A stretch of 64,000 nt of DNA from a bacterium (GTDB lineage: Bacteria; Bacillota; Negativicutes; Veillonellales; Megasphaeraceae). The translations under genes were made by a program, and so were the position numbers. Every line of letters begins with the position of its first letter. The first letter of the stretch is position 1. Of the stretch, positions 28,534 to 64,000 are shown one piece after another. The notes under the pieces were generated by a model. That model was given only the letters and a program-made list of their open reading frames with translations. It was not told the DNA's origin and searched no databases. Location: NCBI GenBank assembly GCA_963655305.1, contig CAVKEA010000002.1, positions 18,894-82,893 on the forward strand. Direction: 5' to 3'.

Positions 28534-28554
28534 TGATACAGGAGAGTATGGAAT

Positions 28555-45358: not shown

Positions 45359-45371
45359 CATGCTATATAAT

Positions 45372-46476: not shown

Positions 46477-46510
46477 AAAAAACGAGATAGCAGTAAAAAT
46501 GCTACCTCGT
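46477..46510 (-). terminator. Intrinsic terminator after the HEPN gene
   Basis: The minus strand reads ACGAGGTAGCA-(loop)-TGCTATCTCGT followed by TTTTTT. Confidence 0.7.
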
Positions 46511-46523
46511 CTTATATATTCTA

Positions 46524-47430: not shown

Positions 47431-47459
47431 TTGACGCTATTATTTTTTCGTGATAGTAT
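47431..47459 (+). promoter_or_regulatory. Candidate sigma-70 type promoter of the pct-lcd operon
   Basis: The plus strand reads TTGACG (47431-47436), a 17-nt spacer, then TAGTAT (47454-47459), about 155 nt upstream of pct. Confidence 0.5.
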
Positions 47460-47616
47460 TCTTACAGGTAATACAAATGCAGTGAGGTTGAATCGTACTG
47501 CTTTGTACGAATTTCCATAAAATTCTCCATGTGAATATTATTTATTTATAAATTCTTTTATAGAATTATAAAACGATTTTAAAAGGAGATAAAAACATAG
47601 GAGGTTATATTCGGCA

Positions 47617-50109: not shown

Positions 50110-50163
50110 TCAACGCATCACCCCGCACGCCAGGCGTGACAGGTAATGGAAAGGATAAAACGT

Positions 50164-50946
50164 ATGTATACACTTGGAATTGATGTTGGTTCTTCGTCTT
50201 CTAAAGCCGTTATTTTAGAAGACGGCAACCGTATCGTTGCACAAGCCGTTATTGAAATCGGTACAGGCTCTACCGGTCCGGAACGTGTCTTGAATGAAGT
50301 ATTTAAAGATACTAACCTGACGTTAGACGATATGGCAAATATCATCGCTACAGGATATGGCCGCTTCAACGTCGTCGCCGCCAAAGGCGAAGTCAGTGAA
50401 ATCACCTGTCATGCCAAGGGTGCCCTTTTTGAATGCCCCGGCACGACAACGATTTTGGATATTGGCGGCCAGGATGTCAAAGCAATTAAGCTGAACAACG
50501 AAGGCTTGGTCATGCAGTTTGCCATGAACGACAAATGCGCAGCCGGTACAGGCCGTTTCCTCGATGTCATGTCCAAAGTATTGGAAATTCCAATGTCTGA
50601 AATGGGCGACTGGTACTTTAAATCCCAGCATCCGGCAGCTGTCAGCAGTACATGCACCGTATTTGCTGAATCAGAAGTTATTTCTCTGCTGTCCAAAAAC
50701 ATTCCCAAGGAAGACATCGTAGCCGGTGTTCATCGCTCCATCGCCAGCAAGGCCAGCGCGCTTGTACGCCGTGTTGGCGTCGGTGCAGACCTGACAATGA
50801 CCGGCGGCGGTTCCCGTGATCCCGGCGTTGTCGATGCCATTTCTAAAGAATTGGGCGTTCCCGTCCGTGTAGCTGCTCATCCGCAGGCAGTTGGTGCCTT
50901 AGGGGCTGCTTTGATTGCCTATGAAAAAGCAGCGAAACATAAATAA
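50164..50946 (+). CDS. lcdC: 2-hydroxyacyl-CoA dehydratase activator ATPase (lactoyl-CoA dehydratase component E-I)
   Basis: The ORF reads MYTLGIDVGSSSSKAVIL, a BcrAD/BadFG (HgdC family) pattern, and has a cluster-bridging Cys context. The start is moved to the ATG at 50164. Confidence 0.9.
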   Translation: MYTLGIDVGSSSSKAVILEDGNRIVAQAVIEIGTGSTGPERVLNEVFKDTNLTLDDMANIIATGYGRFNVVAAKGEVSEITCHAKGALFECPGTTTILDIGGQDVKAIKLNNEGLVMQFAMNDKCAAGTGRFLDVMSKVLEIPMSEMGDWYFKSQHPAAVSSTCTVFAESEVISLLSKNIPKEDIVAGVHRSIASKASALVRRVGVGADLTMTGGGSRDPGVVDAISKELGVPVRVAAHPQAVGALGAALIAYEKAAKHK

Positions 50947-51024
50947 GGTTATTTCTTCCCCTTCCGGAAGATGACATATAAAATAGTACATTAGCTTATC
51001 CAACCGATAAAAGGAGAGATCGTA

Positions 51025-52314
51025 ATGAGTGAAGAAAAAGCAGTAGATATCGAAAGCATGAGCGCCAAAGATGCGCTTGGCTATTTCCTGCCGAAAGTCG
51101 ATGAAGATGCTAGAAAAGCAAAAAAAGAAGGCCGTCTCGTATGCTGGGCTGCCTCTGTAGCACCTCCTGAATTCTGCACAGCGATGGACATTGCTGTTGT
51201 ATTCCCAGAAACACATGCAGCCGGCATTGGTGCCCGTCATGGTGCTCCGGACATGCTCGAAGTTGCTGAAAACAAAGGTTATAACCAGGACATCTGTTCC
51301 TACTGCCGTGTCAACATGGGCTACATGGAATGCCTCAAACAGCAGGCATTAAACGGCGGCGAAGAACCGGACGTATTGAAAAAATCCCCGGCATCCCGTA
51401 TTCCTTTGCCGGATGTTATCCTCACCTGCAACAACATCTGCAACACCTTGTTGAAATGGTACGAAAACTTGGCTAAAGAATTGAACATTCCTTTAATTAC
51501 TATCGACGTACCGTTCAACCATGAATATCCTGTTACAAAACACGCTAAACAGTATATCGTAGGCGAATTCAAACACGCTATCAAACAGCTCGAAGAACTC
51601 TGCGGCCGTCCGTTCAACTACGAAAAATTCTTCGAAGTACAGAAACAGACACAGCGTTCTATCGCAGCTTGGAACAAAATCGCTTCCTATCTCTGCTACA
51701 AACCGTCCCCGCTCAATGGCTTTGACCTCTTCAACTACATGGGCCTTGCCGTAGCAGCTCGTGACCTTGACTATGCTGAAATCACATTCAACAAATTAAT
51801 CAAAGAATTGGACGCTAAAGTTGCTGCTAAAAAATGGGCATTTGGCGAAAACGAAAAAACACGTGTAACCTGGGAAGGTATCGCTGTATGGATTGCTTTG
51901 GGCCATACATTCAAAGAATTAAAAGGCAAAGGCGCTTTGATGACAGGCTCCGCATATCCTGGCATGTGGGATGTTTCCTATGAACCGGGCAACCTCGAAT
52001 CCATGGCAGAAGCATATACACGTACATACATCAACTGCTGCCTCGAACGCCGCGGCGAAGTATTGGAAAACATCGTTCGTGACGGCAAATGCGACGGCTT
52101 GATCATGCATCAGAACCGTTCCTGCAAGAACATGAGTCTCCTCAACGATGAAGGTGGCAAACGCATTCAGAAAAACCTCGGTGTTCCGTATGTTATTTTC
52201 GACGGCGACCAGACCGATCCGCGTAACTTCTCGGAAGCACAATTCGATACTCGTGTTGAAGCATTGTGTGAAACAATGGACGAAAAGAAAGCCAATGAAG
52301 GAGGCAATCACTAA
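51025..52314 (+). CDS. lcdA: 2-hydroxyacyl-CoA (lactoyl-CoA) dehydratase, alpha subunit
   Basis: The 429-aa HgdA-family ORF follows the activator and pct. The subunit sizes match the E-II alpha/beta pair. Confidence 0.88.
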   Translation: MSEEKAVDIESMSAKDALGYFLPKVDEDARKAKKEGRLVCWAASVAPPEFCTAMDIAVVFPETHAAGIGARHGAPDMLEVAENKGYNQDICSYCRVNMGYMECLKQQALNGGEEPDVLKKSPASRIPLPDVILTCNNICNTLLKWYENLAKELNIPLITIDVPFNHEYPVTKHAKQYIVGEFKHAIKQLEELCGRPFNYEKFFEVQKQTQRSIAAWNKIASYLCYKPSPLNGFDLFNYMGLAVAARDLDYAEITFNKLIKELDAKVAAKKWAFGENEKTRVTWEGIAVWIALGHTFKELKGKGALMTGSAYPGMWDVSYEPGNLESMAEAYTRTYINCCLERRGEVLENIVRDGKCDGLIMHQNRSCKNMSLLNDEGGKRIQKNLGVPYVIFDGDQTDPRNFSEAQFDTRVEALCETMDEKKANEGGNH

Positions 52315-53432
52315 TGAGCCAGATTGATGAACTTATCAGCAAATTTCAAGAAGTAGCAAACCATCCTAAAAAAACGGTTTTAGAATATAAAAAACAGGGC
52401 AAAGGCCTTGTAGGTATTATGCCGTACTATGCTCCAGAAGAAATCGTATATGCAGCCGGCTATCTTCCTGTAGGCCTCTTTGGCGCACAGAAACCGACCA
52501 TTTCCGCAGCTCGTACATATTTACCTCCATTCGCTTGTTCTTTGATGCAGGCTGATATGGAATTACAGCTCAACGGCACGTATGACTGCCTCGACGCTGT
52601 TCTCTTCTCCGTTCCCTGCGATACACTCCGCTGCATGAGCCAGAAATGGCACGGCAAAGCTCCGGTTGTTGTTTTCACACATCCGCAGAACCGTAAAATC
52701 CAGGCTGCTGTTGACTTCCTCAAAGCAGAATATGAACATGTCCGCAGCGAATTAGAACGTATTTTGGGCGTAAAAATCACAGACATGGCACTGCAGGAAG
52801 CTATCAAAGTTTACAACGAAAACCGTCAGGTTATGCGTGAATTCTGCGACGTAGCTGCTCAGTATCCGCAAATCTTCACACCGGTAAAACGTCATGACGT
52901 CATCAAAGCTCGTTGGTTCATGGACAAAGCAGAACACACTAAATTGGTTCGTGAATTAATCGACGCTGTCAAAGCTGAAAAAGTACAGCCTTGGACTGGC
53001 AAAAAAGTTATCCTTTCCGGTATTATGGCTGAACCGGATGAATTCCTTGATATCTTCAGCGAATTCAACATGGCTGTCGTAGCCGACGACCTCGCTCAAG
53101 AATCCCGTCAGTACCGCAACGACGTTCCGGCTGGCATTGACCCGCTCGAACAGCTCGCTAAATGGTGGCAGGATTTCGATGGCTGCCCGCTCGCTATGAA
53201 CGCTAACAAACCGCGTGGACAGATGCTCATCGATATGGCTAAAAAATATGACGCTGACGCTGTCGTTATCTGCATGATGCGTTTCTGCGATCCGGAAGAA
53301 TTCGATTATCCTATTTACAAAGTACAGTTCGAAAAAGCCGGCCTTCGCTACACGGTTGTTGACGTGGACCTCGAATCTCCGTCTCTCGAACAGATTCGTA
53401 CACGTATTCAGGCTTTCTCCGAAATTCTCTAA
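52314..53432 (+). CDS. lcdB: 2-hydroxyacyl-CoA (lactoyl-CoA) dehydratase, beta subunit
   Basis: The 372-aa HgdB-family ORF is translationally coupled to lcdA (TAATG overlap). Confidence 0.88.
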   Translation: MSQIDELISKFQEVANHPKKTVLEYKKQGKGLVGIMPYYAPEEIVYAAGYLPVGLFGAQKPTISAARTYLPPFACSLMQADMELQLNGTYDCLDAVLFSVPCDTLRCMSQKWHGKAPVVVFTHPQNRKIQAAVDFLKAEYEHVRSELERILGVKITDMALQEAIKVYNENRQVMREFCDVAAQYPQIFTPVKRHDVIKARWFMDKAEHTKLVRELIDAVKAEKVQPWTGKKVILSGIMAEPDEFLDIFSEFNMAVVADDLAQESRQYRNDVPAGIDPLEQLAKWWQDFDGCPLAMNANKPRGQMLIDMAKKYDADAVVICMMRFCDPEEFDYPIYKVQFEKAGLRYTVVDVDLESPSLEQIRTRIQAFSEIL

Positions 53433-53478
53433 TCGTGTCGCCTGACACATACCTTGTCAATCGTCTGTATTGACCTCA

Positions 53479-53593
53479 CTGCACGGGGAACCTGCCAGGG
53501 CTCCCCTGCAGTAGATAGTATCTGATTGGATGATCAGGTATTATCTACTGCAGAAAACACGATGTACTGATACATCGTTTCTGCACGTTTTTT
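53479..53593 (+). promoter_or_regulatory. Three consecutive, partly mutually exclusive hairpins between lcdB and acd; the last is terminator-like
   Basis: H1 spans 53479-53511 (CTGCACGGGGA...TCCCCTGCAG). H2 spans 53506-53553 (CTGCAGTAGATA...TATCTACTGCAG) and shares CTGCAG with H1. H3 spans 53553-53585 (ACGATGTA-CTGA-TACATCGT core) and is followed by TTTTTT at 53588-53593. Confidence 0.5.
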
Positions 53594-53653
53594 ATTTGAT
53601 TTAAAAGCAACTGCTTTTAAATATATATGTATAATCTTAGGAGGAATTACATT

Positions 53654-54802
53654 ATGGATTTTAAACTTAGTGAAATGCAGCAGGATATCGCTAATCTTGC
53701 TAAAGACTTTGCTGAAAAAAAATTGGCTTTAACGGTTAAAGACCGCGACGAAAAAGAAGTTTTCGACCGCTCCATTCTCGATGACATGGGCAGCCTCGGC
53801 CTTCTCGGTATTCCTTGGGAAGAAGAAAACGGCGGCGTTGGCGCTGACTTCCTCAGCTTGGCTGTTGCCTGCGAAGAAGTTGCAAAAGTTGACCCTTCCA
53901 TCGCTTTGAGCTTTGAAGTACACACCATGCTCTGCTCCTGGCCTATCTGGAAATTCGGCACAGCTGAACAGAAACAGAAATTCTTAAAACCGTTGGCAGA
54001 AGGCACAAAACTCGGTGCATTCGGTCTTACAGAACCGAACGCCGGCACAGATGCTTTGAACGGTGCTACAGTTGCTACTAAAAACGCAGATGGCAGCTAT
54101 ACATTGAACGGCTCCAAAGTCTTCAACACCAACGGCGGCGAAGCTGACGTAACAGTTGTTTTTGCAGCTACAGATAAATCCAAAGGTGCTAAAGGCATGA
54201 GCGCTTTCATCCTCGAAAAAGGCATGGAAGGCTTCACATACGGCAAAGAAGAAATCAAAATGGGTATCCGCGCTTCCGTACAGCGTGAACTCGTATTCCA
54301 GAACGTAAAAGTTCCGGCTGAAAACCTCCTTGGTAAAGAAGGCGAAGGCTTCAAAATCGCTATGATGACCTTGGACGGCGGCCGTGTCGGCGTTGGCGCA
54401 CAGGCTCTCGGCATTGCAGAAGGCGCTTACAACGAAGCTGTTAAATACGCTAAAGAACGTACACAGTTCGGCAAACCGATCGCTAAATTCCAGGCTGTAG
54501 GCTTCATGCTCGCTGATATGAAACTCAAAATTGAAACAGCTCGTTTGGCTGTATACAAAGCTGCTTGGAAAATGGGCCAGCCTGACGTTAAATCCTACTC
54601 TGTAGATGCAGCTATCGCTAAAAAATATGCTTCTGACGTAGCTATGCAGGTTACGACAGACGCTGTACAGGTATTTGGCGGTTACGGCTTCACTCGTGAA
54701 TATCCGGTTGAACGCTACATGCGCGATGCTAAAATCACACAGATTTACGAAGGCACTAACCAGGTACAGCAGATGGTTATTTCCGGCGCTATCCTTCGGT
54801 AA
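53654..54802 (+). CDS. Acyl-CoA dehydrogenase (butyryl-/propionyl-CoA dehydrogenase type; candidate acryloyl-CoA reductase catalytic subunit)
   Basis: The ORF reads MDFKLSEMQQDIANLAKDFAEKK and has the C-terminal block YEGTNQVQQMVISGAILR with the catalytic Glu context. The start is moved to the ATG at 53654 after AGGAGG. Confidence 0.9.
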   Translation: MDFKLSEMQQDIANLAKDFAEKKLALTVKDRDEKEVFDRSILDDMGSLGLLGIPWEEENGGVGADFLSLAVACEEVAKVDPSIALSFEVHTMLCSWPIWKFGTAEQKQKFLKPLAEGTKLGAFGLTEPNAGTDALNGATVATKNADGSYTLNGSKVFNTNGGEADVTVVFAATDKSKGAKGMSAFILEKGMEGFTYGKEEIKMGIRASVQRELVFQNVKVPAENLLGKEGEGFKIAMMTLDGGRVGVGAQALGIAEGAYNEAVKYAKERTQFGKPIAKFQAVGFMLADMKLKIETARLAVYKAAWKMGQPDVKSYSVDAAIAKKYASDVAMQVTTDAVQVFGGYGFTREYPVERYMRDAKITQIYEGTNQVQQMVISGAILR

Positions 54803-55056: not shown

Positions 55057-55887
55057 ATGGAAACTACATTTGACAGATTGACGATACAAAATGATTTTCT
55101 CTTCAAAAAAGTGATGGAAAACAAACGAATCTGCAAACGGCTTATTGAAGAAATTCTGCAAATTCAGATTGAAACATTAACATTTGTCGAAGTAGAAAAA
55201 AGTGTTACGATTTACCAATCCAGCAAAGGAATTCGCATGGATGTCATCGCCCAGGATGAAAACCATACACGATACAACATCGAAATGCAGGCTGCCGATG
55301 TCATACATACAGCAACACATGAATCTCTACTGCCCAAGCGTACTCGCTATTACCAAGCCATGATGGATATGGACATGCTGCAAAAAGGTGATTCATATGA
55401 TAAACTGGCTGAAACGTACATTATATTTATCTGTGGCTTCGATTTATTTGCTAAAGGCCAATATACATATACGTTTCAAAAACGATGTCATGAAGACCTC
55501 TCCCTCATCCTGCCAGACAAGGCAACAATTCTGTTCCTGAACGCTAGAGGAACACATGGCAATGTAACTGCACATATAAAGAATTTTTTACAGTATATGC
55601 GGGAACATATCATATCTGATGATTTTACCAAAGAAATAGACAACGAAATTATCCGAATCAAACAAGATAGACGACTGCGGGGTGAATATATGAAATACGA
55701 AATGAACTTGCACGATGAACGAATGCTGGGATATCAGCAAGGTATTGCGAAAGGTATTGAAAAGGGCATGACATCTACTATCATAGGAATGATACGGGAA
55801 GGTATCGATTTTTCGGTAATAGCTAAAATCACATCGTATTCTATAGAACAAATCCAGAAAATTGCCAAAGACAATCAACTGATATAG
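55057..55887 (+). CDS. Rpn-family recombination-promoting nuclease / PD-(D/E)XK putative transposase
   Basis: The 276-aa ORF contains ND.LFKKVM, GIRMDVIAQDE...YNIEMQ and PKRTRYYQAMM, as in the TIGR01784-type family. The assignment is from memory. Confidence 0.7.
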   Translation: METTFDRLTIQNDFLFKKVMENKRICKRLIEEILQIQIETLTFVEVEKSVTIYQSSKGIRMDVIAQDENHTRYNIEMQAADVIHTATHESLLPKRTRYYQAMMDMDMLQKGDSYDKLAETYIIFICGFDLFAKGQYTYTFQKRCHEDLSLILPDKATILFLNARGTHGNVTAHIKNFLQYMREHIISDDFTKEIDNEIIRIKQDRRLRGEYMKYEMNLHDERMLGYQQGIAKGIEKGMTSTIIGMIREGIDFSVIAKITSYSIEQIQKIAKDNQLI

Positions 55888-55896
55888 TGAAATACT

Positions 55897-55941
55897 AAAA
55901 AAGGAACAATCCCATGTTTTCACATGAGACTGTTCCTTTTT
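55897..55941. terminator. Bidirectional terminator between the Rpn-like gene and the convergent phytase gene
   Basis: The sequence reads AAAAAGGAACAATCCCATG-TTTT-CACATGAGACTGTTCCTTTTT. Confidence 0.7.
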
Positions 55942-55999: not shown

Positions 56000-57934
56000 T
56001 TAACCTACTACATCATGCTTTTCAAGCCACTTGGACCAGGAAGTTGCAAAGTTGTTCTGGTAGTTTTGCTGTACGTATTTGTAGAACAATTTTACCATAC
56101 GTGCTTTGTCTGCATAGTAATCTGCTTTCCACTGATCTTTCTTTGGTTTGGGAATCTTGTATGCAACATAGTTGCCGCCGATTAAGTGCTGACGCTGTAA
56201 GATGTCTTTCAAAGAAACATCCGGGTTCTTCATCATATCAGCCATTGCCATGTATGCCGTCGTGCGGCCTACACCAGCTTGGCAGTGGAAGTGGAGCCAT
56301 GCATCTTTCGGCATGGTACGGAAGAAATTGACAAACTGATCGACGCAGTCCGGAGCCGGCCATACATGATCTGTAGCCGTAATACGAACGTAGTTGACGC
56401 CAAGAGATTTCGCCATTTCTTCTTCTGTCATGGCACTCGTAATCTTGATTTCTTTCGGATTCATAGCGAACTTCTTCTTATCCAATTCAGAAACCACTAC
56501 TTTCTGGCCAAGAGCTGATTTGATACGGTTTGTTTCATCTTTGATGATAACATCATGGGATTTTCCGAGATTGCCCCAATCGCGGAGACCATACCAGCTA
56601 ACTGCATTGCCGTTGAAGTAGCCGTGAGATTCCTGACGAAGGTCAAAATCATAAATTGGACCTTTGGCATATTTCTTGAGTTCTGCTACTACGGCTTTGA
56701 ATTCACCAGCAGAGCACTGGCCGGAACCGGAAATGTTCAATGTATCCATGCCTTTACGAGTCGGAACATACGCCGGATCTAACTGACCAACATATTTTTT
56801 ATCTACTTCACCGAATTTAGAAAGGCTTGTGCGGAAGTTGCGCGGCAGTTTATTTTTATCAGCTGTGTCAATACGCCATACATAACCTTCATAGTCCGGT
56901 TCATAGCTTTCGTAGCCATGCTGTTTCGTCCAGTCGCTGTATTTGATGTCAAAGTTTGGATGCGCTTTGCAGTATTCATAGAACTGTTTCGTAAACTGGT
57001 AACGGTCGATGTATAATTTACGGCCCCAGTTTTTCTTGCTGTCTTTGATTTCGCTGAGGTCTACGATACCAATCAACGCCTGGCGTTTGATGATGTCATC
57101 AAAGCTTACTTTGGACGCGTTTTTCATGATGTCATATGCAACCATCATGATGGTCGTGCGGCCCATGCCTGCATAGCAGTGGAAATGGAGCCATGCGTCC
57201 TTTGGCAGCGTTTTGTAGAACGCGATGAAATCATCCATGTTTTTGTCGCTCGGACGGAAATGGTCATCGATAACGATGCGGTAGTAGTTGGCACCGTGTT
57301 CTTTTACCATCTGTTCTTCGTTGCGAACACTATTGACCTGCATTTCAATCGGCGTCATCAATTTGTTGGTTTTATCATTGAACTGATAAATTTCCACAAC
57401 GCCTTTTTTCTTTACGTTATTAAGCTGGTCCGTTTCAACGTGTTTTACGATATACGGTGTACGGCCATCATTGCCCCAGTCATGGTCTGCAAACCAGCTG
57501 ACTGCAGTGCCGTTAATATAGCCGTGAGATTCAGCGCGCAAGTCAATATCGTAGAACTTGTCTGCTTTAACTGGAACTGTCTTCAAGACTTTTACAAATT
57601 CTTTTTCTGAGAAGATACTACTTGCCGAGGCACGCGTTGTAGACATTCCTTCACGAGACGGGAGTACGCCGTCTTTGGTCAAGCCCTTGAATTTGTCATT
57701 GGATGTACGGAAATTGCGGGGCAGTTGGTCTTTATCGACACGGTCGATTTTAAGAGCCAGTTTGGGAGCCTTTTTGACTTCCTGCGGTTCTGCTTTAACA
57801 TTTTGTGCCTGTGCTGTAATAGCAGTCGGCTGCGCCGTTGCGGCTGCTACGTCCTTGGCGGAAATGACAGCCGTAAACTGTACTGCCATCAAGCCGGCCA
57901 AGACCATAGCCGTTAAGGTTTTCTTGCCTATCAT
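56000..57934 (-). CDS. Secreted tandem-repeat PTP-like (cysteine) phytase / inositol polyphosphate phosphatase
   Basis: Two homologous halves each carry a PTP P-loop (HFHCYAGMGRTT and HFHCQAGVGRTT). The signal peptide is MIGKKTLTAMVLAGLMAVQFTAVISA. The start is moved to the ATG at 57934 after AAAGGAG. Confidence 0.85.
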   Translation of the reverse strand: MIGKKTLTAMVLAGLMAVQFTAVISAKDVAAATAQPTAITAQAQNVKAEPQEVKKAPKLALKIDRVDKDQLPRNFRTSNDKFKGLTKDGVLPSREGMSTTRASASSIFSEKEFVKVLKTVPVKADKFYDIDLRAESHGYINGTAVSWFADHDWGNDGRTPYIVKHVETDQLNNVKKKGVVEIYQFNDKTNKLMTPIEMQVNSVRNEEQMVKEHGANYYRIVIDDHFRPSDKNMDDFIAFYKTLPKDAWLHFHCYAGMGRTTIMMVAYDIMKNASKVSFDDIIKRQALIGIVDLSEIKDSKKNWGRKLYIDRYQFTKQFYEYCKAHPNFDIKYSDWTKQHGYESYEPDYEGYVWRIDTADKNKLPRNFRTSLSKFGEVDKKYVGQLDPAYVPTRKGMDTLNISGSGQCSAGEFKAVVAELKKYAKGPIYDFDLRQESHGYFNGNAVSWYGLRDWGNLGKSHDVIIKDETNRIKSALGQKVVVSELDKKKFAMNPKEIKITSAMTEEEMAKSLGVNYVRITATDHVWPAPDCVDQFVNFFRTMPKDAWLHFHCQAGVGRTTAYMAMADMMKNPDVSLKDILQRQHLIGGNYVAYKIPKPKKDQWKADYYADKARMVKLFYKYVQQNYQNNFATSWSKWLEKHDVVG

Positions 57935-58044
57935 GGGTACGTCACTCCTTTTTATATTCATTAATATTTATGAGCGTATCGATTACAGTATGAGGAGTTG
58001 TGCTTGTATGTCAAGCACAATACCCCATAACTGCGGAAAAATCA

Positions 58045-59334
58045 TTAGAATTTCGTAACAAATTTAAGGTAGAAGGAATTCTTCGTTGCTTTCTGAAGTG
58101 CTTTGCCTTTGCTATCAACGTTTCTATTATCCGGTGTAGTGGAACCCCAATACCGCAAGAGAGAAATCTTGGAATTATCACTGACAGCGTAATCGGTTTC
58201 CCAACCGAAGCCTTTGAAGCCCATTTCATCGATATAATCTTTATAGCCGCCGTAGTTATCGTTCATGAACAAGTTCTGATCGACATTGAAGTATTTAACA
58301 GCGGTTTCCCATGTGCCTTTCTTCTTAGCATGACCATAATGAAGACCTACCATATAGCCATCTGTCGATGCATTGGCACCACGGTATTTATAACCATAAT
58401 TAACGTCACCGAATGCATCACCTGCACCGTTTAACCATTCAGCAGCTGGTTTATCCGTATTGCTGTTGTGAATATATTCGCCGCTGACCCAGAATTTACC
58501 GACAATCGGTGTCTTGCCATAGACGCCGATATATTCTTCCGGCTGCTGATGGGATACATAAAGTCCGGCATAGGCATCTTTCGTAAAGTTGTGGCGGTAG
58601 TCGGCAAACCACAAGACACGGGCTCTATCATGTCGCTGATCTTCACAGGTATTTTCGCACAAATATTCTTGGGAATCGCGGCCATAGAATACTTTCGCAT
58701 AGTCTTTATCAGTGAATTTATAAGACGTGCTGAAACCTTTGATGGAGCTCTTAGACAAGTAGAGACCTTCACCAAGATCTGCCCCTTGGATACCTGCTTC
58801 AATCAAGCCTGCATCTTTGGCACCGAATTTTTTCATGATTTCTGCATAGGTCAACTGAATTTTATTTTTTTCATAGGCTTCTTTATATTTAGCAGAGCTG
58901 GAACCATATTTGGTGACATCGCCCGGTTCATAAGACGTTGCTTTATATTTGACACCGACTTTTACGCCAAAGCCATCTTTAAGCTGTTTTGTCGCATTGA
59001 TCTTCGCTTCGCCTTTTACTTTAGATGTACCAGTGGAATCACTCCAGTAACCTGTCTTAATAGATCCACTCCATTTGATCTGATCTTTTTCTGCTTTTTT
59101 TACCTTTTTTAGGTCTTTAGACTGTTTGTCACTGGTTTTCTGCAAATAATGGAGTTCGCTTTCCATGGAGTTCAAGCGTTCCGTCAATTCAACGATTTCT
59201 GCTTCCAGCGCCTGTGTCCGTACTTCAGCAGATGTGTCTGCAGCAAATGCTGTCGGTGCCATACCGGCAGTCATGCCGAAGGCCATACCGGTTGCCAACA
59301 TGCATGTCAGCAAATTTCTCTTGCTTTGTTTCAT
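58045..59334 (-). CDS. Outer-membrane porin-like protein with an N-terminal coiled coil
   Basis: It has a signal peptide ending AFA, a heptad-rich segment (ALEAEIVELTERLNSMESELHYLQK), alternating beta-strand-like sequence rich in G/Y/K, and a C-terminal YLKFVTKF ending in Phe. Confidence 0.7.
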   Translation of the reverse strand: MKQSKRNLLTCMLATGMAFGMTAGMAPTAFAADTSAEVRTQALEAEIVELTERLNSMESELHYLQKTSDKQSKDLKKVKKAEKDQIKWSGSIKTGYWSDSTGTSKVKGEAKINATKQLKDGFGVKVGVKYKATSYEPGDVTKYGSSSAKYKEAYEKNKIQLTYAEIMKKFGAKDAGLIEAGIQGADLGEGLYLSKSSIKGFSTSYKFTDKDYAKVFYGRDSQEYLCENTCEDQRHDRARVLWFADYRHNFTKDAYAGLYVSHQQPEEYIGVYGKTPIVGKFWVSGEYIHNSNTDKPAAEWLNGAGDAFGDVNYGYKYRGANASTDGYMVGLHYGHAKKKGTWETAVKYFNVDQNLFMNDNYGGYKDYIDEMGFKGFGWETDYAVSDNSKISLLRYWGSTTPDNRNVDSKGKALQKATKNSFYLKFVTKF

Positions 59335-59374
59335 AATAAAACCTCTCCCTTTTTATATTAAATGATTACCCTGC

Positions 59375-60325
59375 TTAATCAGCATATCCTTGTTGTTCAC
59401 ACCACTGGCTGTATGTAATATCCAGGTTGGGATGTGCTTTTGCATAGTCATAGAACCGTTTGGTAAATTCAGCACGTTTCGGATAGTTTGCTTTTTTATA
59501 CGGGTCTTTAGTCGTCTGAGCTGAGAATCGAACGTCCTGGCCGCCGAGCAATACTTCACGAGTCATGATTTCGTCATAGCTGAGTTTCGTCGCATTGTGA
59601 ATCATGTCAATCATCTGCAGGGTAATAGTCGTTCTGCCTACACCAGCTTCGCAGTGCGCATGAATCCAAGCATCTTTCGGCAGGGATTTATAGAATTTAA
59701 CAAACTGGTCAATATTGGCACGCGTCGGGGCACTGTAGTCCATAATGGGGATACGATAGTATTTGACACCCATGGATTCGACAAATTCGCGTTCTGTCAT
59801 AACAGAATCTACTTTGACTTCTGTCAAGGATGCGATCGATTTGTCTTTGGCCTGTGTTGCGATGTTAATCGTGCCGGCTGCTTTCGCATCTTTGAGCAAT
59901 GCTTTTTCGCGTTTGTTTACTTCTTTGGCATTGAGGCCTTTGTTGTATGTTTTGTAGCGGCTGTACCAGCTGACACCATTGTCATTGATATAGCCATGGG
60001 ATTCGTTGCGAAGGTCGAGAACAATCACGCGTTCCTTCGGAATCTTTTTCAGCATTTCTTTAAATTCGTTTTTAGAGAAATAGCTGCTGCCGGACATCTG
60101 CAGTTCATTGAGGCCTTCGCGGGTTGGATATACACCCGTTTTAGATTCTTTGTACTGGCTTTGTGCCGTGCGGAAGTTAGCCGGCATGACAGATACATTA
60201 GCAGGGCGGTCGTATTTGACGAACTGCACCCCTTCTGCCGGTTCTGCTGCAAATACAGCGCTGCAGCAGAGCATCAAGCCTACTACTAAGGCTGATGTTT
60301 TCAATTTGTACTTCTTGTTTAACAT
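59375..60325 (-). CDS. Secreted single-domain PTP-like (cysteine) phytase
   Basis: Its P-loop HAHCEAGVGRTT is identical in core to the Selenomonas PhyA signature HCEAGVGRT. It has a signal peptide (ALVVGLMLCCSAVFA). The start is moved to the ATG at 60325. Confidence 0.88.
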   Translation of the reverse strand: MLNKKYKLKTSALVVGLMLCCSAVFAAEPAEGVQFVKYDRPANVSVMPANFRTAQSQYKESKTGVYPTREGLNELQMSGSSYFSKNEFKEMLKKIPKERVIVLDLRNESHGYINDNGVSWYSRYKTYNKGLNAKEVNKREKALLKDAKAAGTINIATQAKDKSIASLTEVKVDSVMTEREFVESMGVKYYRIPIMDYSAPTRANIDQFVKFYKSLPKDAWIHAHCEAGVGRTTITLQMIDMIHNATKLSYDEIMTREVLLGGQDVRFSAQTTKDPYKKANYPKRAEFTKRFYDYAKAHPNLDITYSQWCEQQGYAD

Positions 60326-60359
60326 ACGATACATCTCCTTTTATAATAAATTTTTATTG

Positions 60360-63278
60360 CTAACCGTGTATAACGTCGGTGTATTCCGGATATTCCCGCA
60401 GTCTGTCTACAGGAGCAAAGCCGACGGCACCTGTAAAGGTACCTTTCTCCCAATCGTTGCGGGTGGACCAGAACATTTCCGTAAAATCTGTTTCATTGCA
60501 TGCTGTAATCTGATATTCCTTGAGTTCTGGAATATACGTGCCTTCGGCGTTGACTTCAGCGGCAAATTCCGTCACGATGCGGACATATTGTGCCGGAGCC
60601 AGCGACGAAAGATCTATATAATTCGTTCCGTCTTTCAAAACGACTTTTAACGAATCTTTAACCGTTGCGCCGTCATCGGATACTTCGACGGTGGCTTTCA
60701 AGCCTGCCTGCAGCGGCAGTACGGTTTTGACTTTCATCTGTCTAAATTCCCAATATTTCTTTTCTGTCAGAAACTTCGGCGCGAAAATCGTCGGATGACG
60801 CCATTCTGTCGTATGCGTTCCTACAGTCAAAATATCACGGAAATCATACCAGGCAGCCAACGCACTGCATTTGGGCCCTTTTTTGTGGGGTTCTGCATAT
60901 ATCTGCGCGTTTTCTTTTTCCGTCAAGCCTGTTTTATAAAAACGGACTTGGCTGACACTGCCGGGAAGATGCGTAAAGTATTTAGGACGGTCGATTTCCG
61001 GAATGATATGCCCTATATAGGAATATCCCACAAAAATCGGCTCGCTGTCCCATTGGCGGAACGTGCATTCCGGCGCGATGCCGGATACATGGGCTACATT
61101 TTGGCCGTCGCACCAGGAATCGCCGCCCCGGCTTTTGTCAAAGGCCATGCTGTAGTGCGTCCACTTGCCAATATTGGCATGACCGCCCTGCCAGGAATAT
61201 TCTGTAATATCGTGGCATGTCCCCCATTTAAGGCCGCCGGCCCGTTCAATGACCATGCGCAGGAAATACGTAGCGCCCCAGCCTACGGACTTGCCGCGGA
61301 CCATCAAGGGATTGTGTCCCATTTCATTGGGTTTCGCCAGTCTGTCTACGTTGGCCCAAACCATGGAGGTAAAGCCTTTATCGACATTAAAGTCTGTACT
61401 TGCCGGAATTTCGATATAGTCACCGTAGTGTTCAAAATGAACTTCTGCTCTGTCTTTGCTGACGATGACTTTTGGCGTGCCCCTCAAGAGAGCATAATGG
61501 CCGTTCCCCGATTTATCATGAATGCGGGGAACAATGCGAATGCCGCCTTCAATTTGAATTTCTTTGGGAAGCTGGTCGGCAATGCTGACTTGATAGCTGC
61601 CGCCTTGTTTAAACTTATATTGAAATTCGATGGATTTTTTTTCATGGCCCCGGAAAAAGAGATTTTTTGATTCGGCTACGCGTTGGTCAATATACAGCGG
61701 CACCGTTACAAATATTTCTTTATCCAGATTGTTGGTCGCTACGATGCTGGCAACCAAACTGTCTGACGCAGTGCCTTTGCCCGGAAAAATTTTCATGTGC
61801 GCAAAGGTCAGCTGTTCCGGTTCAAATACGGTAATATGCAGCATTTCGCCATGTACTGTAATGTCGTGTTCCCCTTGAGAAGCGGCTTTGTAGAACGCCG
61901 TCACTTTGGCTTCTTCCCCTGCTTCCAAGAGAACGAGATGATTATTTTCTTCTGTCCCGAACAAGCTGATTTCGTGCATCGTCCGGTTATCTTTGAGCTG
62001 GATGACAGCTGTTGCCGGGCAGGTGCCGATATTCTTGACGCGGCAGTTGATTTCTATATTGCCGTTGTTGTCCAGACGGCGCAGCAGGACTTCGTCTACA
62101 CTGAGTTTCGGTTCGTCATGATTCATATGAATCGTATCGACGAGCCGATCTTCACCGTCTTCGCTGAATCCATAGGTTTTATATTCCAATGTATCCTGCG
62201 TAACTTCCAAGATACTGTAATTGCTGTGACCAATAGCAGCTACTTCCGGAAAATCGCTCAGCAGCCGTTTGTCTTCCTGAATTTTTTCCAACGAAGCTTC
62301 CGGCTCCTGCGTGCTGCCTTGGCAGACACACATCATCTTGGCCCCTTTGCGGCAGTCAATAGACGTCGCTTTGATATAGTAATGCAAGTGGCCGCCGATG
62401 AGTAAATCGACGCCGCAGCGTTCGGCAATCGGTACCAGGTATTTATTATTAAAAATATCAGTATACGGATGATGTACGATGACAATACGCCATGACGCCT
62501 GCTTCGCTGCTTCACTTTGCAAATCGGCTTCAATCCACTGCAGCGTTTGTTCAATGCGCTGCTTCGTTTCTTTATCTGCCGTCAACCCGGAGTTGACAGC
62601 ATTCATTTCAAACAAGCCCCATGGGTTGCTGTCTGCCATGACAATATGGGCAGCCCCATAATCAAAGGAAAAGGCTGCGCCGTTTTCCATACCATGAACG
62701 ACATTTGCCTGCGGCTGTGTAAAAAAGGACTGGAAAAACGGGCCGTCGTCATGATTGCCCGGTACATAGTACACACCGGTCTTTCGCAGTACGTCAGGAA
62801 TTTTCTGAAACCAGTTGGCTTCATACTGTTCACGCTGATACCCCGTGCCGAACGAAATATCGCCGCCATGAAGAATCAAGTCCGGTTTTTCCCGTTCTAC
62901 CATACGTGAAAATTGTTTTTCTGTATGGAATAAATGGGAATCAGAAATCGTGACCATCCGTACAGTATCCGGATGTGCCGGAAGGGTGGCGAATCTGTCC
63001 GAAACCAACAGATTCGCGCCTTCATACACTGCATAGTCATAGATAGTGTCTGCAGCCAATGCCGGCAGCGCTGCCGTATACAGGCAGCATCCTTCCGGAT
63101 ACTCGCGGCATGGCAGTTCTCTTGCACACGTTGGAGTTATTTTTTTTACATTCGCTTTTTCTGTACCGTATGAAACAGAGAAGATACCTTCTTCTGCTGC
63201 TTCCCAGGCGATAGTAACGCGCGAAGCTGTGAGTCCCAGTAAATAAGGACCGTTTAAAATTTGCTTCTTTGTTTTCAT
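60360..63278 (-). CDS. Large metallophosphoesterase (purple-acid-phosphatase-like N-terminus) fused to a LamG/concanavalin-like domain and additional beta-rich domains
   Basis: The calcineurin-like motifs appear in order: SDSH, GGDIS, GNHD, VHHP, GGHLH. A LamG-like region follows (GDYIEIP...FTSMVWAN...WTHYSMAF). No N-terminal hydrophobic signal is seen. Confidence 0.75.
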   Translation of the reverse strand: MKTKKQILNGPYLLGLTASRVTIAWEAAEEGIFSVSYGTEKANVKKITPTCARELPCREYPEGCCLYTAALPALAADTIYDYAVYEGANLLVSDRFATLPAHPDTVRMVTISDSHLFHTEKQFSRMVEREKPDLILHGGDISFGTGYQREQYEANWFQKIPDVLRKTGVYYVPGNHDDGPFFQSFFTQPQANVVHGMENGAAFSFDYGAAHIVMADSNPWGLFEMNAVNSGLTADKETKQRIEQTLQWIEADLQSEAAKQASWRIVIVHHPYTDIFNNKYLVPIAERCGVDLLIGGHLHYYIKATSIDCRKGAKMMCVCQGSTQEPEASLEKIQEDKRLLSDFPEVAAIGHSNYSILEVTQDTLEYKTYGFSEDGEDRLVDTIHMNHDEPKLSVDEVLLRRLDNNGNIEINCRVKNIGTCPATAVIQLKDNRTMHEISLFGTEENNHLVLLEAGEEAKVTAFYKAASQGEHDITVHGEMLHITVFEPEQLTFAHMKIFPGKGTASDSLVASIVATNNLDKEIFVTVPLYIDQRVAESKNLFFRGHEKKSIEFQYKFKQGGSYQVSIADQLPKEIQIEGGIRIVPRIHDKSGNGHYALLRGTPKVIVSKDRAEVHFEHYGDYIEIPASTDFNVDKGFTSMVWANVDRLAKPNEMGHNPLMVRGKSVGWGATYFLRMVIERAGGLKWGTCHDITEYSWQGGHANIGKWTHYSMAFDKSRGGDSWCDGQNVAHVSGIAPECTFRQWDSEPIFVGYSYIGHIIPEIDRPKYFTHLPGSVSQVRFYKTGLTEKENAQIYAEPHKKGPKCSALAAWYDFRDILTVGTHTTEWRHPTIFAPKFLTEKKYWEFRQMKVKTVLPLQAGLKATVEVSDDGATVKDSLKVVLKDGTNYIDLSSLAPAQYVRIVTEFAAEVNAEGTYIPELKEYQITACNETDFTEMFWSTRNDWEKGTFTGAVGFAPVDRLREYPEYTDVIHG

Positions 63279-63334
63279 TGTTTTCCTCCGTTACGAAGAG
63301 AAGCAGCACACTATCCGTATAAGGCAGCTAATGC

Positions 63335-64000
63335 TTACGCTGCTTCTTCGTTTTCTTCTTTATGTTTCTTTGCCCACAATGTCGGGATAATCAACGCTGT
63401 CATAATAGCAACAGAGCCAATCCAGAACATCATGATGGTTTCAAAATGATATACAGTCACACCGTTGGTAACAACTTTTGCAGAATCCATGAGGAACCCA
63501 TTGACAATATCCTGCAGGGCTGCGCCGCCGTATGCCGTAAGGCCGATAACGCCCATGGCTGCGCCTGTTGCTTTTCTCGGGCAGAGGTCAACAGCCAAAA
63601 GACCGCCTACAAAGCAAAGGATAACGCCAAGGCCAAAGCCAAAGATAGCTACGAAAGCAGCTGCGACTGTCGGTGAGCCAGCCGGTACGAAGCAAACACC
63701 AGCAATACCGATGAGCATTACAATACCGAAGACAATCGTAGTAACAGAATGATGCGATTTAAAAATCTTATCAGAAATAAAACCGGATAAGAAAGAACCT
63801 ACGCCGCCGAGAATCGGGGACAATGCCATGATACTGCCGGCTGTCACGAGGTCGAGGCCTTTAGCTTCCTGCAGGAAGATGACGCCCCAGCTGGAAATAG
63901 AGTAACGGGAAATACCTAAGCAGATAGCTGCTAATGACAAGAGCCATACATACGGGTTTTTCAAAACGAGCATCTGAGCTTCTTTGGAAGATACTTTTTG
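63335..64000 (-). CDS. MFS transporter, organophosphate:Pi antiporter (OPA; GlpT/UhpC-like) family, C-terminal half (the N-terminus lies beyond the window end)
   Basis: The frame is open to the window edge. The block VLKNPYVWLLSLAAICLGISRYSISSWGVIFLQE...GFISDKIF resembles the second half of GlpT/UhpT-type transporters. Confidence 0.7.
   Translation of the reverse strand, partial: QKVSSKEAQMLVLKNPYVWLLSLAAICLGISRYSISSWGVIFLQEAKGLDLVTAGSIMALSPILGGVGSFLSGFISDKIFKSHHSVTTIVFGIVMLIGIAGVCFVPAGSPTVAAAFVAIFGFGLGVILCFVGGLLAVDLCPRKATGAAMGVIGLTAYGGAALQDIVNGFLMDSAKVVTNGVTVYHFETIMMFWIGSVAIMTALIIPTLWAKKHKEENEEAA

Follow-up and report, generated by a model that had tools for sequence, protein, structure and literature searches.

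Selenomonas, Megasphaera elsdenii and Mitsuokella have each yielded characterised PTP-like cysteine phytases, that of Mitsuokella being a tandem-repeat protein, as a preliminary description of the present locus had stated in agreement with PDB 3F41 and PMC3981807. PhyAmm of Mitsuokella multacida (PDB 3F41, 4WU3) and PhyAsr of Selenomonas ruminantium (1U24 and others) have been treated singly in the literature. The model published for Mitsuokella jalaludinii comprises one phytase, an inositol transporter and PstSCAB, the latter two induced on phytate; Ins(2)P was the sole phosphorylated intermediate observed, growth was faster on phytate than on inositol, and free myo-inositol accumulated in culture supernatants as well (PMC7618129). 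That pathway assigns no enzyme to the step from Ins(2)P to inositol and no inositol-phosphate importer (PMC7618129). The iol clusters described in Bacillus subtilis, Salmonella and Anaerostipes (iolG/D/E/C/B and aldolase) use inositol permeases. We describe here a five-gene locus in a gut Megasphaera that we consider rather likely to be an operon by which a diderm Firmicute uses inositol phosphates, composed of two modules that also occur apart elsewhere. No description of this operon, or of its MFS-phosphatase module, was found among the papers searched.

The window analysed is the whole 64-kb stretch of DNA. Open reading frame analysis placed five co-directional genes on its minus strand, with intergenic spacing of 25-110 nt, where the preliminary description had put them. 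In order of transcription they encode an OPA-family MFS transporter, a 972-aa metallophosphoesterase (MPP), a single-domain PTP-like phytase, an outer-membrane protein (OMP) and a tandem PTP-like phytase. Gaps measured from ORF starts are 56, 25, 40 and 83 nt, and each gene is preceded by a ribosome-binding site. A terminator-like hairpin (55898..55941, minus strand; 20-bp stem, 4-nt loop, T tract) directly follows the stop codon of the tandem phytase gene and is the only strong one in an intergenic position; a scan of the four gaps within the operon found no comparable hairpin. We infer that it closes the transcription unit and that the five genes are co-transcribed. Between the genes for the OMP and the tandem phytase, a consensus scan picked out a possible internal sigma-70-like promoter (57987..58014, minus strand; TTGACA-16-CATACT) with 10 of 12 matches, which are not evidence of function. 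The same gene order is found on the exact contig, on Megasphaera MAGs of 93-98 % identity and in more distant genera, so that the arrangement is not due to chance. MAG loci of 98 % identity place the source organism in Megasphaera.

The last gene of the operon (56000..57961, minus strand) is a 653-aa ORF whose likely start is the ATG at 57934, which has AAGGAG upstream and gives 644 aa, the length of the gene call on an identical contig (L002); this start accounts for the 110-nt gap quoted previously. Its product matches PF14566 (PTPlike_phytase) in two stretches (213.2 bits; cut-off 27) and aligns with PDB 3F41 over residues 51-650 (phmmer, E 9e-261), and by sequence it is an orthologue of PhyAmm, sharing its two-repeat architecture and P-loops. 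The single-domain enzyme (319 aa; 59375..60334, minus strand, with a start that may be 60325) scores 101.9 bits with PF14566. It aligns full-length to both repeats of PhyAmm 3F41 (E 2e-58 and 1e-52), retaining the general-acid Asp, and is related to PhyAsr as well. The three P-loops quoted in the preliminary description are all present in the translations: HCEAGVGRT in the single enzyme, and HCYAGMGRT (D1) and HCQAGVGRT (D2) in the tandem one. Hydrophobic signal-like segments stand at the N-termini of both phytases and the OMP, and both phytases are predicted to be secreted.

Some database names for such proteins (XopH, HopD2, “DSP-PTPase toxin”) would make them protein or lipid phosphatases or toxin/effector domains. 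We regard this as very improbable: the best NCBIfam match is indeed the effector XopH, under its cut-off, and homologues carry source names such as “Effector protein hopD2”, but the tandem protein matches PhyAmm, a phytase characterised both biochemically and structurally, full-length, and both proteins are far above the PF14566 cut-off with P-loop and general acid kept. XopH is itself a member of the PTP-like phytase family, which also counts against this reading.

Between the two phytase genes lies the gene for the OMP (429 aa; 58045..59334, minus strand). Searches of Pfam, NCBIfam and the PDB with the single sequence gave no match, and the earlier designation “porin-like” was then without database support. 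A family profile now matches OmpM1 of Veillonella parvula (8BYM/8BYS, E 1.9e-9). An AlphaFold model built from a 21-sequence alignment (pLDDT 70.9) has 16 long strands, and its best Foldseek match is again OmpM1 (E 2.9e-15, TM 0.72 on target), followed by OprB, OmpU and OmpC. The protein consists of a signal peptide, a coiled-coil helix of ∼50 residues, a 16-strand beta-barrel and a C-terminal Phe. OmpM1 (PDB 8BYM, 8BYS, 8BYT), an outer-membrane attachment porin, is likewise built of a coiled-coil stalk and then a 16-strand porin barrel, whereas the OMP lacks the SLH domain, presumably has no peptidoglycan-tethering role for that reason, and is genetically tied to phytases. Profile and model together show it to be distantly homologous to the Negativicute porin OmpM1 but devoid of the SLH anchor domain. 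Its barrel has 22 conserved K/R against 12 conserved D/E and a net charge of +7, in contrast to 0 to −16 in the SLH-porin paralogues that adjoin the phytase-porin module in M. multacida; these charge counts suggest anion selectivity.

The first gene of the operon (63335..64000, minus strand) runs past the end of the window, which holds its 3′ two-fifths. This part matches PF07690 (MFS_1), with PgtP, UhpC and GlpT as the best NCBIfam matches, and scores under every GlpT, UhpT, UhpC and PgtP equivalog cut-off. In contigs of 94-99 % identity the full-length protein has 450 aa. One such copy (L001) matches E. coli GlpT (PDB 1PW4) at E 1.6e-49, with R45, K80, H165 and R269 of GlpT all conserved; the R269 equivalent lies inside the window, in GISRYSISSWG. 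The protein has the MFS fold of the organophosphate:Pi antiporters GlpT, UhpT and PgtP (TC 2.A.1.4; GlpT structure 1PW4; SLC37A4), its best family matches, and the substrate-site residues of GlpT, but it belongs to a highly conserved subfamily of its own that is always paired with the 970-aa phosphatase. Across Negativicute families the transporter is 80-89 % identical, and the adjoining phosphatase just 50-66 %. No precedent for a bacterial OPA transporter with an inositol phosphate substrate was found in the literature.

The phosphatase gene (60360..63278, minus strand) encodes a protein with two Pfam matches, PF00149 (Metallophos) at 58.5 bits against a cut-off of 21.5 and PF13385 (Laminin_G_3) at 29.8 bits against 27.6. 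The family assignments of all five proteins in the preliminary description are borne out by profile searches. Its domains are a purple-acid-phosphatase-like N-terminal domain and catalytic core, Ig/CARDB-like repeats, LamG and a conserved C-terminal region. Domains of the CARDB/Ig-like and LamG types are commoner in extracellular proteins. All five metallophosphoesterase motifs (D113-x-H115, G139-D140, G174-N-H-D177, H269-H270 and H297-L-H299) are unchanged across 16 homologues that are 33-69 % identical, and G296 is kept in at least 90 % of these. The family profile matches plant purple acid phosphatases (PAPs), including 6GIT/6GJ2, at E 8e-11 to 3.5e-8. These are its nearest solved relatives, and plant PAPs and phytases (kidney bean PAP 4DHL/1KBP; 6GIT/6GJ2) share with it the N-terminal PAP-type domain followed by a calcineurin-like core. 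In contrast to them, the bacterial protein has DSH rather than DxG as motif I, GDISF without the chromophoric Tyr as motif II, and ∼600 extra residues (Ig/CARDB-like, LamG and unknown C-terminal domains). A signal peptide, sought in this protein and 15 diverse homologues, was found in none, and the enzyme, unlike the plant ones, is predicted to be cytoplasmic.

Both the DxH motif and the lack of the PAP Tyr are common in phosphodiesterases, and the sole match in a single-sequence PDB search was the glycerophosphodiesterase GpdQ, a weak one (E 0.004). These features speak for two independent modules fused by chance, in which the phytases and porin free Pi and inositol outside the cytoplasm and the MFS-phosphatase pair imports and cleaves a different organophosphate. 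That substrate might be glycerophosphoinositol, another phosphodiester or a sugar phosphate, and might even so feed into inositol or central metabolism. We give this account, substrate included, a modest chance. The nearest solved relatives of the phosphatase profile, being monoesterases, argue against it. A paralogue of the phosphatase, situated behind another MFS gene and a signal-less, and so cytoplasmic, homologue of phosphatidylinositol-specific phospholipase C (PI-PLC; 1AOD, E 5e-19), bears on both sides: it points to phosphodiester substrates, and it also connects the family with inositol-phosphate chemistry in a third, independent way.

Gene neighbourhoods were compared at 60 genome loci found through the phosphatase. 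Among the 50 copies with at least 1.8 kb upstream, the MFS gene is directly upstream on the same strand in 41, from Selenomonadales, Veillonellales, Sporomusales, Clostridium, Caproicibacter and the actinomycetes Schaalia, Scrofimicrobium and Propionibacterium. As a two-gene module, the pair is conserved in Negativicutes, Clostridia and Actinomycetes alike. At the 31 loci with at least 5 kb on each side, PTP-like phytases occur within 10 kb of the pair in 16, iol genes (iolG/D/E/C/B) in 21, either in 26 and both in 11; IolG, IolD, IolE and IolC are above NCBIfam equivalog cut-offs. The comparison proposed in the preliminary description shows conservation well beyond close relatives and a tie to myo-inositol catabolic genes. 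The phytases, in at least eight genera, lie upstream of, between or downstream of the pair depending on the genus, and this shuffling indicates that proximity has been maintained, not merely inherited, which weighs against a chance fusion. The co-directional string aldolase-iolC-iolB-iolD-iolG-iolE-MFS-(PHP)-MPP occurs in Sporomusa, Pelosinus, Anaerospora, Clostridium estertheticum, C. muellerianum and Caproicibacter. Most of these strings contain no transporter other than the OPA protein, in contrast to the permeases of described iol clusters, and this too argues against independent modules. Searches begun with the phytase led back to the same architecture, with a genuine SLH porin replacing the SLH-less one at one locus. 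On the other side, the pair stands without phytase or iol genes within 10 kb in Schaalia and Scrofimicrobium, at a Clostridium locus by trp genes and at some Selenomonas loci; its occurrence without phytases in Actinomycetes is as independent modules would predict.

Independent modules would likewise predict the separation found at locus L067 and in Mitsuokella. In the latter the phytase-porin and transporter-phosphatase modules are at different loci, which makes the five-gene fusion one arrangement of two separable modules. In M. multacida an OMP-Phy1-PhyAmm module lies among SLH-porin paralogues. There, as here, the tandem phytase shares a conserved module with another phytase and a porin of its own, to which the transporter-phosphatase pair is also attached in many genera. 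In the M. jalaludinii genome (L041), an AraC-MFS-MPP module adjoins an iol cluster.

In contigs nearly identical to the window a divergent AraC-type gene with a cupin sensor domain lies just past its end, before the MFS, phosphatase, single phytase, OMP and tandem phytase genes; further upstream lie iolG and another AraC gene. The preliminary description had pointed upstream of the MFS gene for a Pho-box or a regulator: the regulator is there in close relatives, but it is AraC-cupin, not Pho-type. Regulators beside the module are AraC-type (cupin) or LacI-type, that is, sugar-type. The divergent regulator probably controls the operon, implying a substrate signal, and the logic looks like carbon-source induction, not phosphate starvation.

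This bears on whether the operon simply scavenges phosphate, all dephosphorylation of phytate being extracytoplasmic, Pi the product that counts and inositol taken up, if at all, by a separate permease. On this reading the MFS protein would import glycerol-3-P or hexose-P without special adaptation, and the large phosphatase would be a general-purpose phosphoesterase of the cytoplasm. We think this unlikely in both respects. Organophosphate:Pi antiport, as by GlpT and UhpT, brings little or no net phosphorus gain, which counts against it, as do the regulators, the transporter's scores under every equivalog cut-off and the tight and widespread linkage to iol genes. In its favour, a search of the 64-kb window found no iol genes, and in Megasphaera relatives iolG is the sole iol gene within 10 kb of the operon, well short of a complete pathway. 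The M. jalaludinii model with its induced inositol transporter and PstSCAB fits it too, as does the free inositol in the medium (PMC7618129); at least some of the last dephosphorylation may be extracytoplasmic, or inositol leaks out.

The sequence analysis establishes gene order, families and folds, catalytic and binding residues that are intact, predicted localisation and a conserved neighbourhood. For the inositol-phosphate utilisation operon that we favour, we infer the substrates of porin, transporter and phosphatase, and which inositol phosphate crosses each membrane, as follows. In the envelope module, the positive barrel of the SLH-less OmpM-type porin would be a dedicated outer-membrane route for highly anionic inositol phosphates, and the two Sec-exported phytases, on the model of characterised PTP-like enzymes and of Mitsuokella cultures, would dephosphorylate phytate outside the cytoplasm as far as InsP1, probably Ins(2)P. 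In the uptake module, the antiporter would bring in external InsP1, whose size and charge resemble those of hexose-6-phosphate, while releasing cytoplasmic Pi, and the PAP-like enzyme would hydrolyse the imported ester, releasing myo-inositol for Iol-type catabolism and regenerating Pi for further exchange. That the phytases stop at InsP1 is the most likely refinement of the phytate route first proposed, along with import of InsP1 against Pi and cytoplasmic release of inositol. The route itself has the support of genomic context, through the MFS-phosphatase pairing, the phytase and iol linkage and the paralogue beside the PI-PLC homologue, and those checks proposed in the preliminary description that are computable were all in its favour. 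Because the same gene set recurs beside inositol-breakdown genes in many anaerobes, the operon probably shows how such organisms take phytate, the main plant phosphorus store, to usable inositol.

Long open reading frames and profile searches bore out the preliminary description of five co-directional minus-strand genes and the families assigned to them. In order of transcription, these are the 3' part of an MFS transporter gene (63335 to beyond 64000), a 972-aa metallophosphoesterase-LamG protein (60360-63278), a 319-aa single-domain phytase (59375-60334), a 429-aa outer-membrane protein (OMP; 58045-59334) and a tandem phytase with an ORF of 653 aa (56000-57961). Every one of the five is preceded by a Shine-Dalgarno-like sequence. 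By this criterion the tandem phytase probably starts at 57934 and is 644 aa long, the same length being called on the identical contig L002 (genome loci found via the phosphatase or a phytase carry the designations L001 to L067). The intergenic gaps obtained with Shine-Dalgarno-based starts are 56, 25-34, 40 and 110 nt in transcription order. A terminator-like hairpin (55941-55898) lies directly 3' of the tandem phytase gene and is the sole convincing one at an intergenic position; a promoter-like match between the genes for the OMP and the tandem phytase is a consensus match only. The five genes are thus likely to form one predicted transcription unit. No riboswitch was found near the operon in an Rfam scan of the window, the sole match being a single tRNA gene at 32326-32396.

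The operon promoter lies beyond the window, and the upstream part was read from contigs of Megasphaera metagenome-assembled genomes (MAGs) and from one 94% identical metagenomic contig. The phosphatase is 93-98% identical to loci of uncultured Megasphaera MAGs. The full-length transporter in related contigs is 450 aa; upstream of its gene, an AraC-family regulator with a cupin/AraC-binding sensor domain is encoded divergently, and it is also the adjacent gene in near-identical contigs. In L001 the region between these two genes spans 6480-6881. Beyond this regulator are an IolG-like Gfo/Idh/MocA oxidoreductase, a second AraC regulator and an MFS_2 sugar transporter. Homologues of the myo-inositol catabolic (iol) genes are absent from the whole 64-kb window; in close relatives iolG only is found near the operon, upstream of it, and full iol sets flank the module in other genera.

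Directly after the operon terminator, a PD-(D/E)XK (PDDEXK_2) transposase-like gene is encoded convergently (55057-55887, plus strand) and is unrelated to the operon. At the 93% identical MAG locus L006, only a 111-aa ORF separates the tandem phytase from the acyl-CoA dehydrogenase cluster, so the transposase-like gene looks strain-variable. That cluster (50146-54802, plus strand) comprises a 2-hydroxyacyl-CoA dehydratase set, with a BcrAD_BadFG activator and two HGD-D subunits, followed by an acyl-CoA dehydrogenase; it fits an acrylate- or hydroxyglutarate-type fermentation of Megasphaera and is likewise unrelated to the operon. A 299-aa protein at 49210-50109 (plus strand) consists of two near-identical halves (residues ~1-150 and 151-299), an internal tandem duplication, both halves being glyoxalase/VOC-type domains (PF13669 in two stretches). 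G+C content is low at 26000-30000 and 44000-48000 (0.33-0.38, vs ~0.45 elsewhere), and these stretches may be acquired islands.

Both phytases matched the PTP-like phytase profile PF14566 (cut-off 27), the single-domain enzyme at 101.9 bits and the tandem enzyme at 213.2 bits in two stretches. The family motif is a P-loop, HCxxGxGR(T/S), with the catalytic Cys, together with a general-acid Asp in a WPD-like loop (PMC12406696). The P-loops named in the preliminary description are present in the translations and conform to this motif: HCEAGVGRT in the single-domain enzyme, HCYAGMGRT and HCQAGVGRT in the tandem one. At the general-acid position, aligned with the D-H of both repeats of PhyAmm, the tandem phytase of Mitsuokella multacida (PDB 3F41), the tandem enzyme has DDH and TDH and the single-domain enzyme MDY. 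The tandem phytase aligns end to end with PhyAmm (E-value 9e-261), and on this ground an effector or toxin reading of the PTP domains was rejected; the single-domain phytase can be aligned with either PhyAmm repeat, and both its catalytic Cys and its general-acid Asp are conserved. From the full-length match, the tandem enzyme is likely to hydrolyze phytate (InsP6) and lower inositol phosphates. The literature agrees that enzymes of this type have been characterized in S. ruminantium, M. elsdenii and M. multacida, and the two PhyAmm repeats are functionally differentiated (PMC3981807). Both phytases are new members of this well-studied family. Hydrophobic signal-like N-termini are present on all three envelope proteins, that is, on the two phytases and the OMP.

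The 972-aa protein matched Metallophos (PF00149, 58.5 bits; cut-off 21.5) and Laminin_G_3 in profile searches and belongs to the calcineurin-like metallophosphoesterase superfamily. Its five metal-binding motifs (D-x-H, G-D, G-N-H-D/E, H and G-H-x-H) do not vary among 16 homologues, the most distant of which is 33% identical. A signal sequence is absent: the protein and 15 diverse homologues begin directly with the conserved domain. Searching the PDB with the single sequence gave a weak match to GpdQ only. With the family profile, the nearest solved relatives were plant purple acid phosphatases (PAPs; 4DHL, 1KBP and 6GIT/6GJ2, E-values 8e-11 to 3.5e-8), the last of which, named only “Purple acid phosphatase” in the PDB, we take to be the wheat purple acid phytase. 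Precomputed annotation places the PAP N-terminal domain PF16656 in many homologues, and the 972-aa protein itself combines an N-terminal PAP domain with a catalytic core related to the solved PAPs. Identity as a true purple acid phosphatase is ruled out by the motifs: the PAP ligand set includes DxG in motif I and the Tyr of GDxxY, and here motif I reads D113-S-H115 and motif II reads G139-D-I-S-F, with Phe at the position of the chromophoric Tyr. Judged by sequence, the protein is a predicted cytoplasmic binuclear-metal phosphoesterase with intact motifs.

The best profile matches of the partial transporter were the organophosphate:Pi antiporters (OPA family) PgtP, UhpC and GlpT. Over the part they share, a full-length copy is 99% identical to it; this copy aligns with E. 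coli GlpT (1PW4, E-value 1.6e-49), and GlpT R45, K80, H165 and R269, residues for phosphate and substrate binding, all align to identical residues. Similarity to GlpT, UhpT and PgtP, together with the Arg pair, Lys and His of the substrate site, assigns the transporter to the OPA family. Because its scores fall below every curated equivalog cut-off (TIGR00881, 246.6 bits vs 407.75; UhpC, 226.8 vs 564; GlpT, 216.2 vs 632.55; UhpT, 146.5 vs 497; PgtP, 155.9 vs 750), it should be considered an OPA-family member of undefined specificity. The transporter is 80-89% identical across Negativicute families, the adjoining phosphatase only 50-66%.

The 429-aa OMP matched nothing in Pfam or NCBIfam, and a single-sequence search of the PDB returned noise only. 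A profile built from 19 sequences of its family matched OmpM1 of Veillonella parvula, a porin with an SLH domain (8BYM, E-value 1.9e-9), the match spanning the stalk and first strands. An AlphaFold model was calculated from an alignment of 21 homologues (pLDDT 70.9; the single-sequence model was unusable at pLDDT 35). It has a long N-terminal helix (residues 34-84) and 16 long beta-strands, and in Foldseek it retrieved OmpM1 first (E-value 2.9e-15), followed by OprB, OmpU and OmpC/F-type porins. The porin-like call in the preliminary description is therefore upheld by the profile match and by the modeled fold. In the model the protein has the 16-strand barrel behind a coiled-coil stalk that is typical of OmpM, but it lacks the N-terminal peptidoglycan-binding SLH domain by which OmpM is defined: PF00395 did not match the window protein, and the precomputed Pfam annotation is blank for each of the 120 homologues listed. 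The SLH domain is present, in contrast, in the paralogues neighboring the OMP orthologue of M. multacida. Conserved Lys and Arg residues in the barrel number 22, vs 12 conserved Asp and Glu, with several in i/i+2 pairs; the net charge is +7, vs 0 to -16 for the five adjoining M. multacida SLH-porin paralogues. Anion- or phosphate-selective porins of the PhoE or OprP/OprO type are recognized by measured anion selectivity or by a ladder of Arg and Lys in the lumen; from the charge counts, the OMP may reasonably be expected to prefer anions. Note that M. multacida has at least five such paralogues (424-433 aa) around its OMP and phytase genes (L063:1642-7721, 13727-15019). Their signal and SLH N-termini are identical, and together they mark a conspicuous expansion of the OmpM type at this site.

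For comparative analysis, 60 genome loci were collected with the phosphatase family profile and searched with the window proteins; all ORFs were then clustered and recurrent families annotated. Of the 50 phosphatase copies with enough upstream sequence, 41 are immediately preceded by the OPA transporter gene in the same orientation, and the copies that lack it there are mostly second, paralogous ones. This pair occurs in the Negativicutes Megasphaera, Selenomonas, Mitsuokella, Megamonas, Anaerovibrio, Propionispira, Centipeda, Pelosinus, Sporomusa and Anaerospora, and also in Clostridium, Caproicibacter, Schaalia, Scrofimicrobium and Propionibacterium. Recurrent neighbors in the 60-locus set were a divergent AraC regulator (33 loci), PTP-like phytases (28), IolG (22), IolD (15), the OmpM-like protein and IolE (14 each), IolC (13), and a class II aldolase, IolB and a DeoR regulator (10 each); IolG, IolD, IolE and IolC exceeded NCBIfam equivalog cut-offs. 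Among the 31 loci flanked by at least 5 kb on either side, phytases were found in 16, iol genes in 21, either in 26 and both in 11. Sporomusales, two Clostridium species and Caproicibacter share a co-directional string, aldolase-iolC-iolB-iolD-iolG-iolE-transporter-(PHP-domain phosphoesterase)-phosphatase, with the pair at its end, and in most such strings the OPA protein is the sole transporter. Protein searches returned ~115 phosphatase clusters and ~280 porin clusters.

Phytases lie upstream of, between or downstream of the pair, depending on the genus, and this variation argues for selection on proximity. Mitsuokella carries the two modules apart, with AraC, transporter and phosphatase beside an iol cluster (L039, L041); in M. 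multacida the OMP, the single-domain phytase, PhyAmm and a 384-aa TAT-signal protein are encoded elsewhere, amid the SLH-porin paralogues. Phytase-centered look-ups yielded one locus with the identical five-gene architecture, one with a genuine SLH porin at the OMP position and one phytase-only module with a chemoreceptor; a distant Clostridium homologue (39% identity) had no relevant context. In actinomycetes a LacI-type regulator adjoins the pair, and neither iol nor phytase genes lie within 10 kb. Lastly, in oral Selenomonas, Centipeda, a Mitsuokella sp. and Megamonas, a phosphatase paralogue follows a different MFS gene and a signal-less homologue of Listeria phosphatidylinositol-specific phospholipase C (PI-PLC; 1AOD, E-value 5e-19; L026:7710-9951, L029:7780-9995, L030:7781-9996, L038:14063-15451, L053:1588-3814). 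Here the phosphatase family is linked to inositol-phosphate chemistry for a third, independent time, which suggests that an imported inositol phosphodiester is routed through the cytoplasm. As genomic evidence, the conserved association of the parts with each other and with inositol catabolism genes supports the earlier interpretation of the locus as an inositol-phosphate operon.

Several accessory genes recur near the module in relatives. A TAT-signal protein of ~380-394 aa with no other Pfam match directly follows the phytases or the phosphatase in several genera (L063:12308-13462, L036:12959-14143, L049:6120-7268, L011:7289-8434, L060:9655-10824, L062:12945-14114; 381-aa and 370-aa genes in L066 and L067); it directly follows PhyAmm in M. 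multacida, is absent from the window operon, and may belong to the phytate system as an additional exported component. A PHP-domain phosphoesterase (235-254 aa, NF006702-like) is encoded at 14 loci between the genes for the OPA transporter and the large phosphatase (L014:9148-9912 and 13 others, e.g. L013, L015, L017, L043, L045, L062 and L066:2547-3260). It takes the transporter's place in two Megasphaera loci (L007, L014), does not occur in the window, and is a candidate second cytoplasmic phosphatase of the module. A dCache_1 methyl-accepting chemotaxis protein beside phytase and phosphatase genes at 10 loci (L017:16601-18652 and nine others; also L067:14344-16341), in Sporomusales, Clostridium, Megamonas and Selenomonadaceae, may be a receptor for chemotaxis towards phytate, inositol phosphates or inositol. 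At Anaerovibrio-type loci, a small metallophosphoesterase (~325-338 aa) with a signal- or TAT-like N-terminus lies beside iolG and AraC genes upstream of the module (L027:743-1753, L033:4764-5756, L059:281-1270, L040:5019-6035, L065:339-1313) and is a candidate for another exported phosphatase.

Seeds hold their phosphorus mainly as phytate, which acts as an anti-nutrient in feed and food and in the gut is a substrate for short-chain fatty acid production; to our knowledge, Mitsuokella and Selenomonas relatives are the most efficient known degraders of phytate. PTP-like phytases leave the last, axial 2-phosphate. Inositol monophosphate (InsP1) resembles hexose-6-phosphate in size and charge, and organophosphate:Pi antiport gives little net phosphorus. 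In the proposed mechanism, the phytases would degrade phytate in the envelope to InsP1, the positively charged porin would let inositol phosphates pass, the antiporter would exchange InsP1 for cytoplasmic Pi, and the phosphatase would free inositol and regenerate Pi. The small net gain of phosphorus by antiport, regulatory neighbors of AraC or LacI rather than Pho type, and the iol linkage together point to carbon acquisition rather than phosphate scavenging.

Published observations bear on this mechanism from both sides. According to the M. jalaludinii pathway paper (PMC7618129), no phosphorylated intermediate other than Ins(2)P was observed in cultures, and growth of this species is faster on phytate than on inositol, which the published pathway explains poorly; free inositol also builds up outside the cells, which counts against the model. 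In that paper the pathway ends at “a phytase”, outer-membrane crossing of the highly charged inositol phosphates and removal of the 2-phosphate are not explained, and an inositol transporter is invoked. The M. jalaludinii DSM 13811 orthologues of the transporter and the phosphatase lie at about 101511-102893 and 103059-105968 of NZ_JNKR01000004.1. To see whether the induced “inositol transporter” MJ_0380 could be the OPA transporter of the module, genes were counted from iolE (MJ_0385) at the M. jalaludinii locus L041; MJ_0380 would be an Fe-alcohol dehydrogenase if numbering runs towards iolE, and would lie beyond the locus if it runs the other way. Also against the model are the diesterase-like motif features and extracellular-type domains of the phosphatase, the occurrence of the pair at times without any inositol context, and the lack of a full iol pathway near the operon in this Megasphaera.

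In the pathway paper and in a 2025 review, a single phytase and an inositol transporter are discussed, and term searches of the two found neither the operon nor porin or transporter-phosphatase components. A 2026 gut isolate survey reports no conserved neighborhood around histidine-acid and beta-propeller phytase genes and terms purple acid phytases plant-specific. Literature searches, whose coverage was incomplete such that an earlier description may exist, found no operon-level description, OPA inositol-phosphate transporter, iol-linked metallophosphoesterase, SLH-less OmpM-like porin or transporter-phosphatase module.

The locus is a substrate-utilization operon built of known superfamilies, with two uncharacterized families, and very probably it is dedicated to inositol-phosphate utilization. 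The specific sequence of steps, from phytases through the porin and an InsP1:Pi antiporter to a cytoplasmic phosphatase, is favored with moderate confidence, and it is plausible that the OPA transporter is the first bacterial inositol-phosphate importer. Somewhat short of an even chance, and put forward tentatively, is the joint reading of a first bacterial inositol-monophosphate:Pi antiporter, a new class of cytoplasmic inositol-phosphate phosphatase, a portable two-gene module and a dedicated anion-selective porin.

The locus proposes a concrete, testable candidate for each step from phytate to inositol and defines two uncharacterized but widespread families, the phosphatase and the porin. 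If confirmed, an Ins(2)P phosphatase and an inositol-phosphate importer would help both in the design of feed enzymes and in predicting phytate-to-inositol capacity from metagenomes. Were the joint reading true, the 970-aa PAP-like/LamG protein would supply the Ins(2)P-to-inositol step that is missing from anaerobic phytate degradation, inositol phosphates would have an anion-selective porin of their own in the SLH-less OmpM-like protein, and the module would channel externally generated inositol phosphates to iol catabolism among Negativicutes, Clostridia and Actinomycetes.
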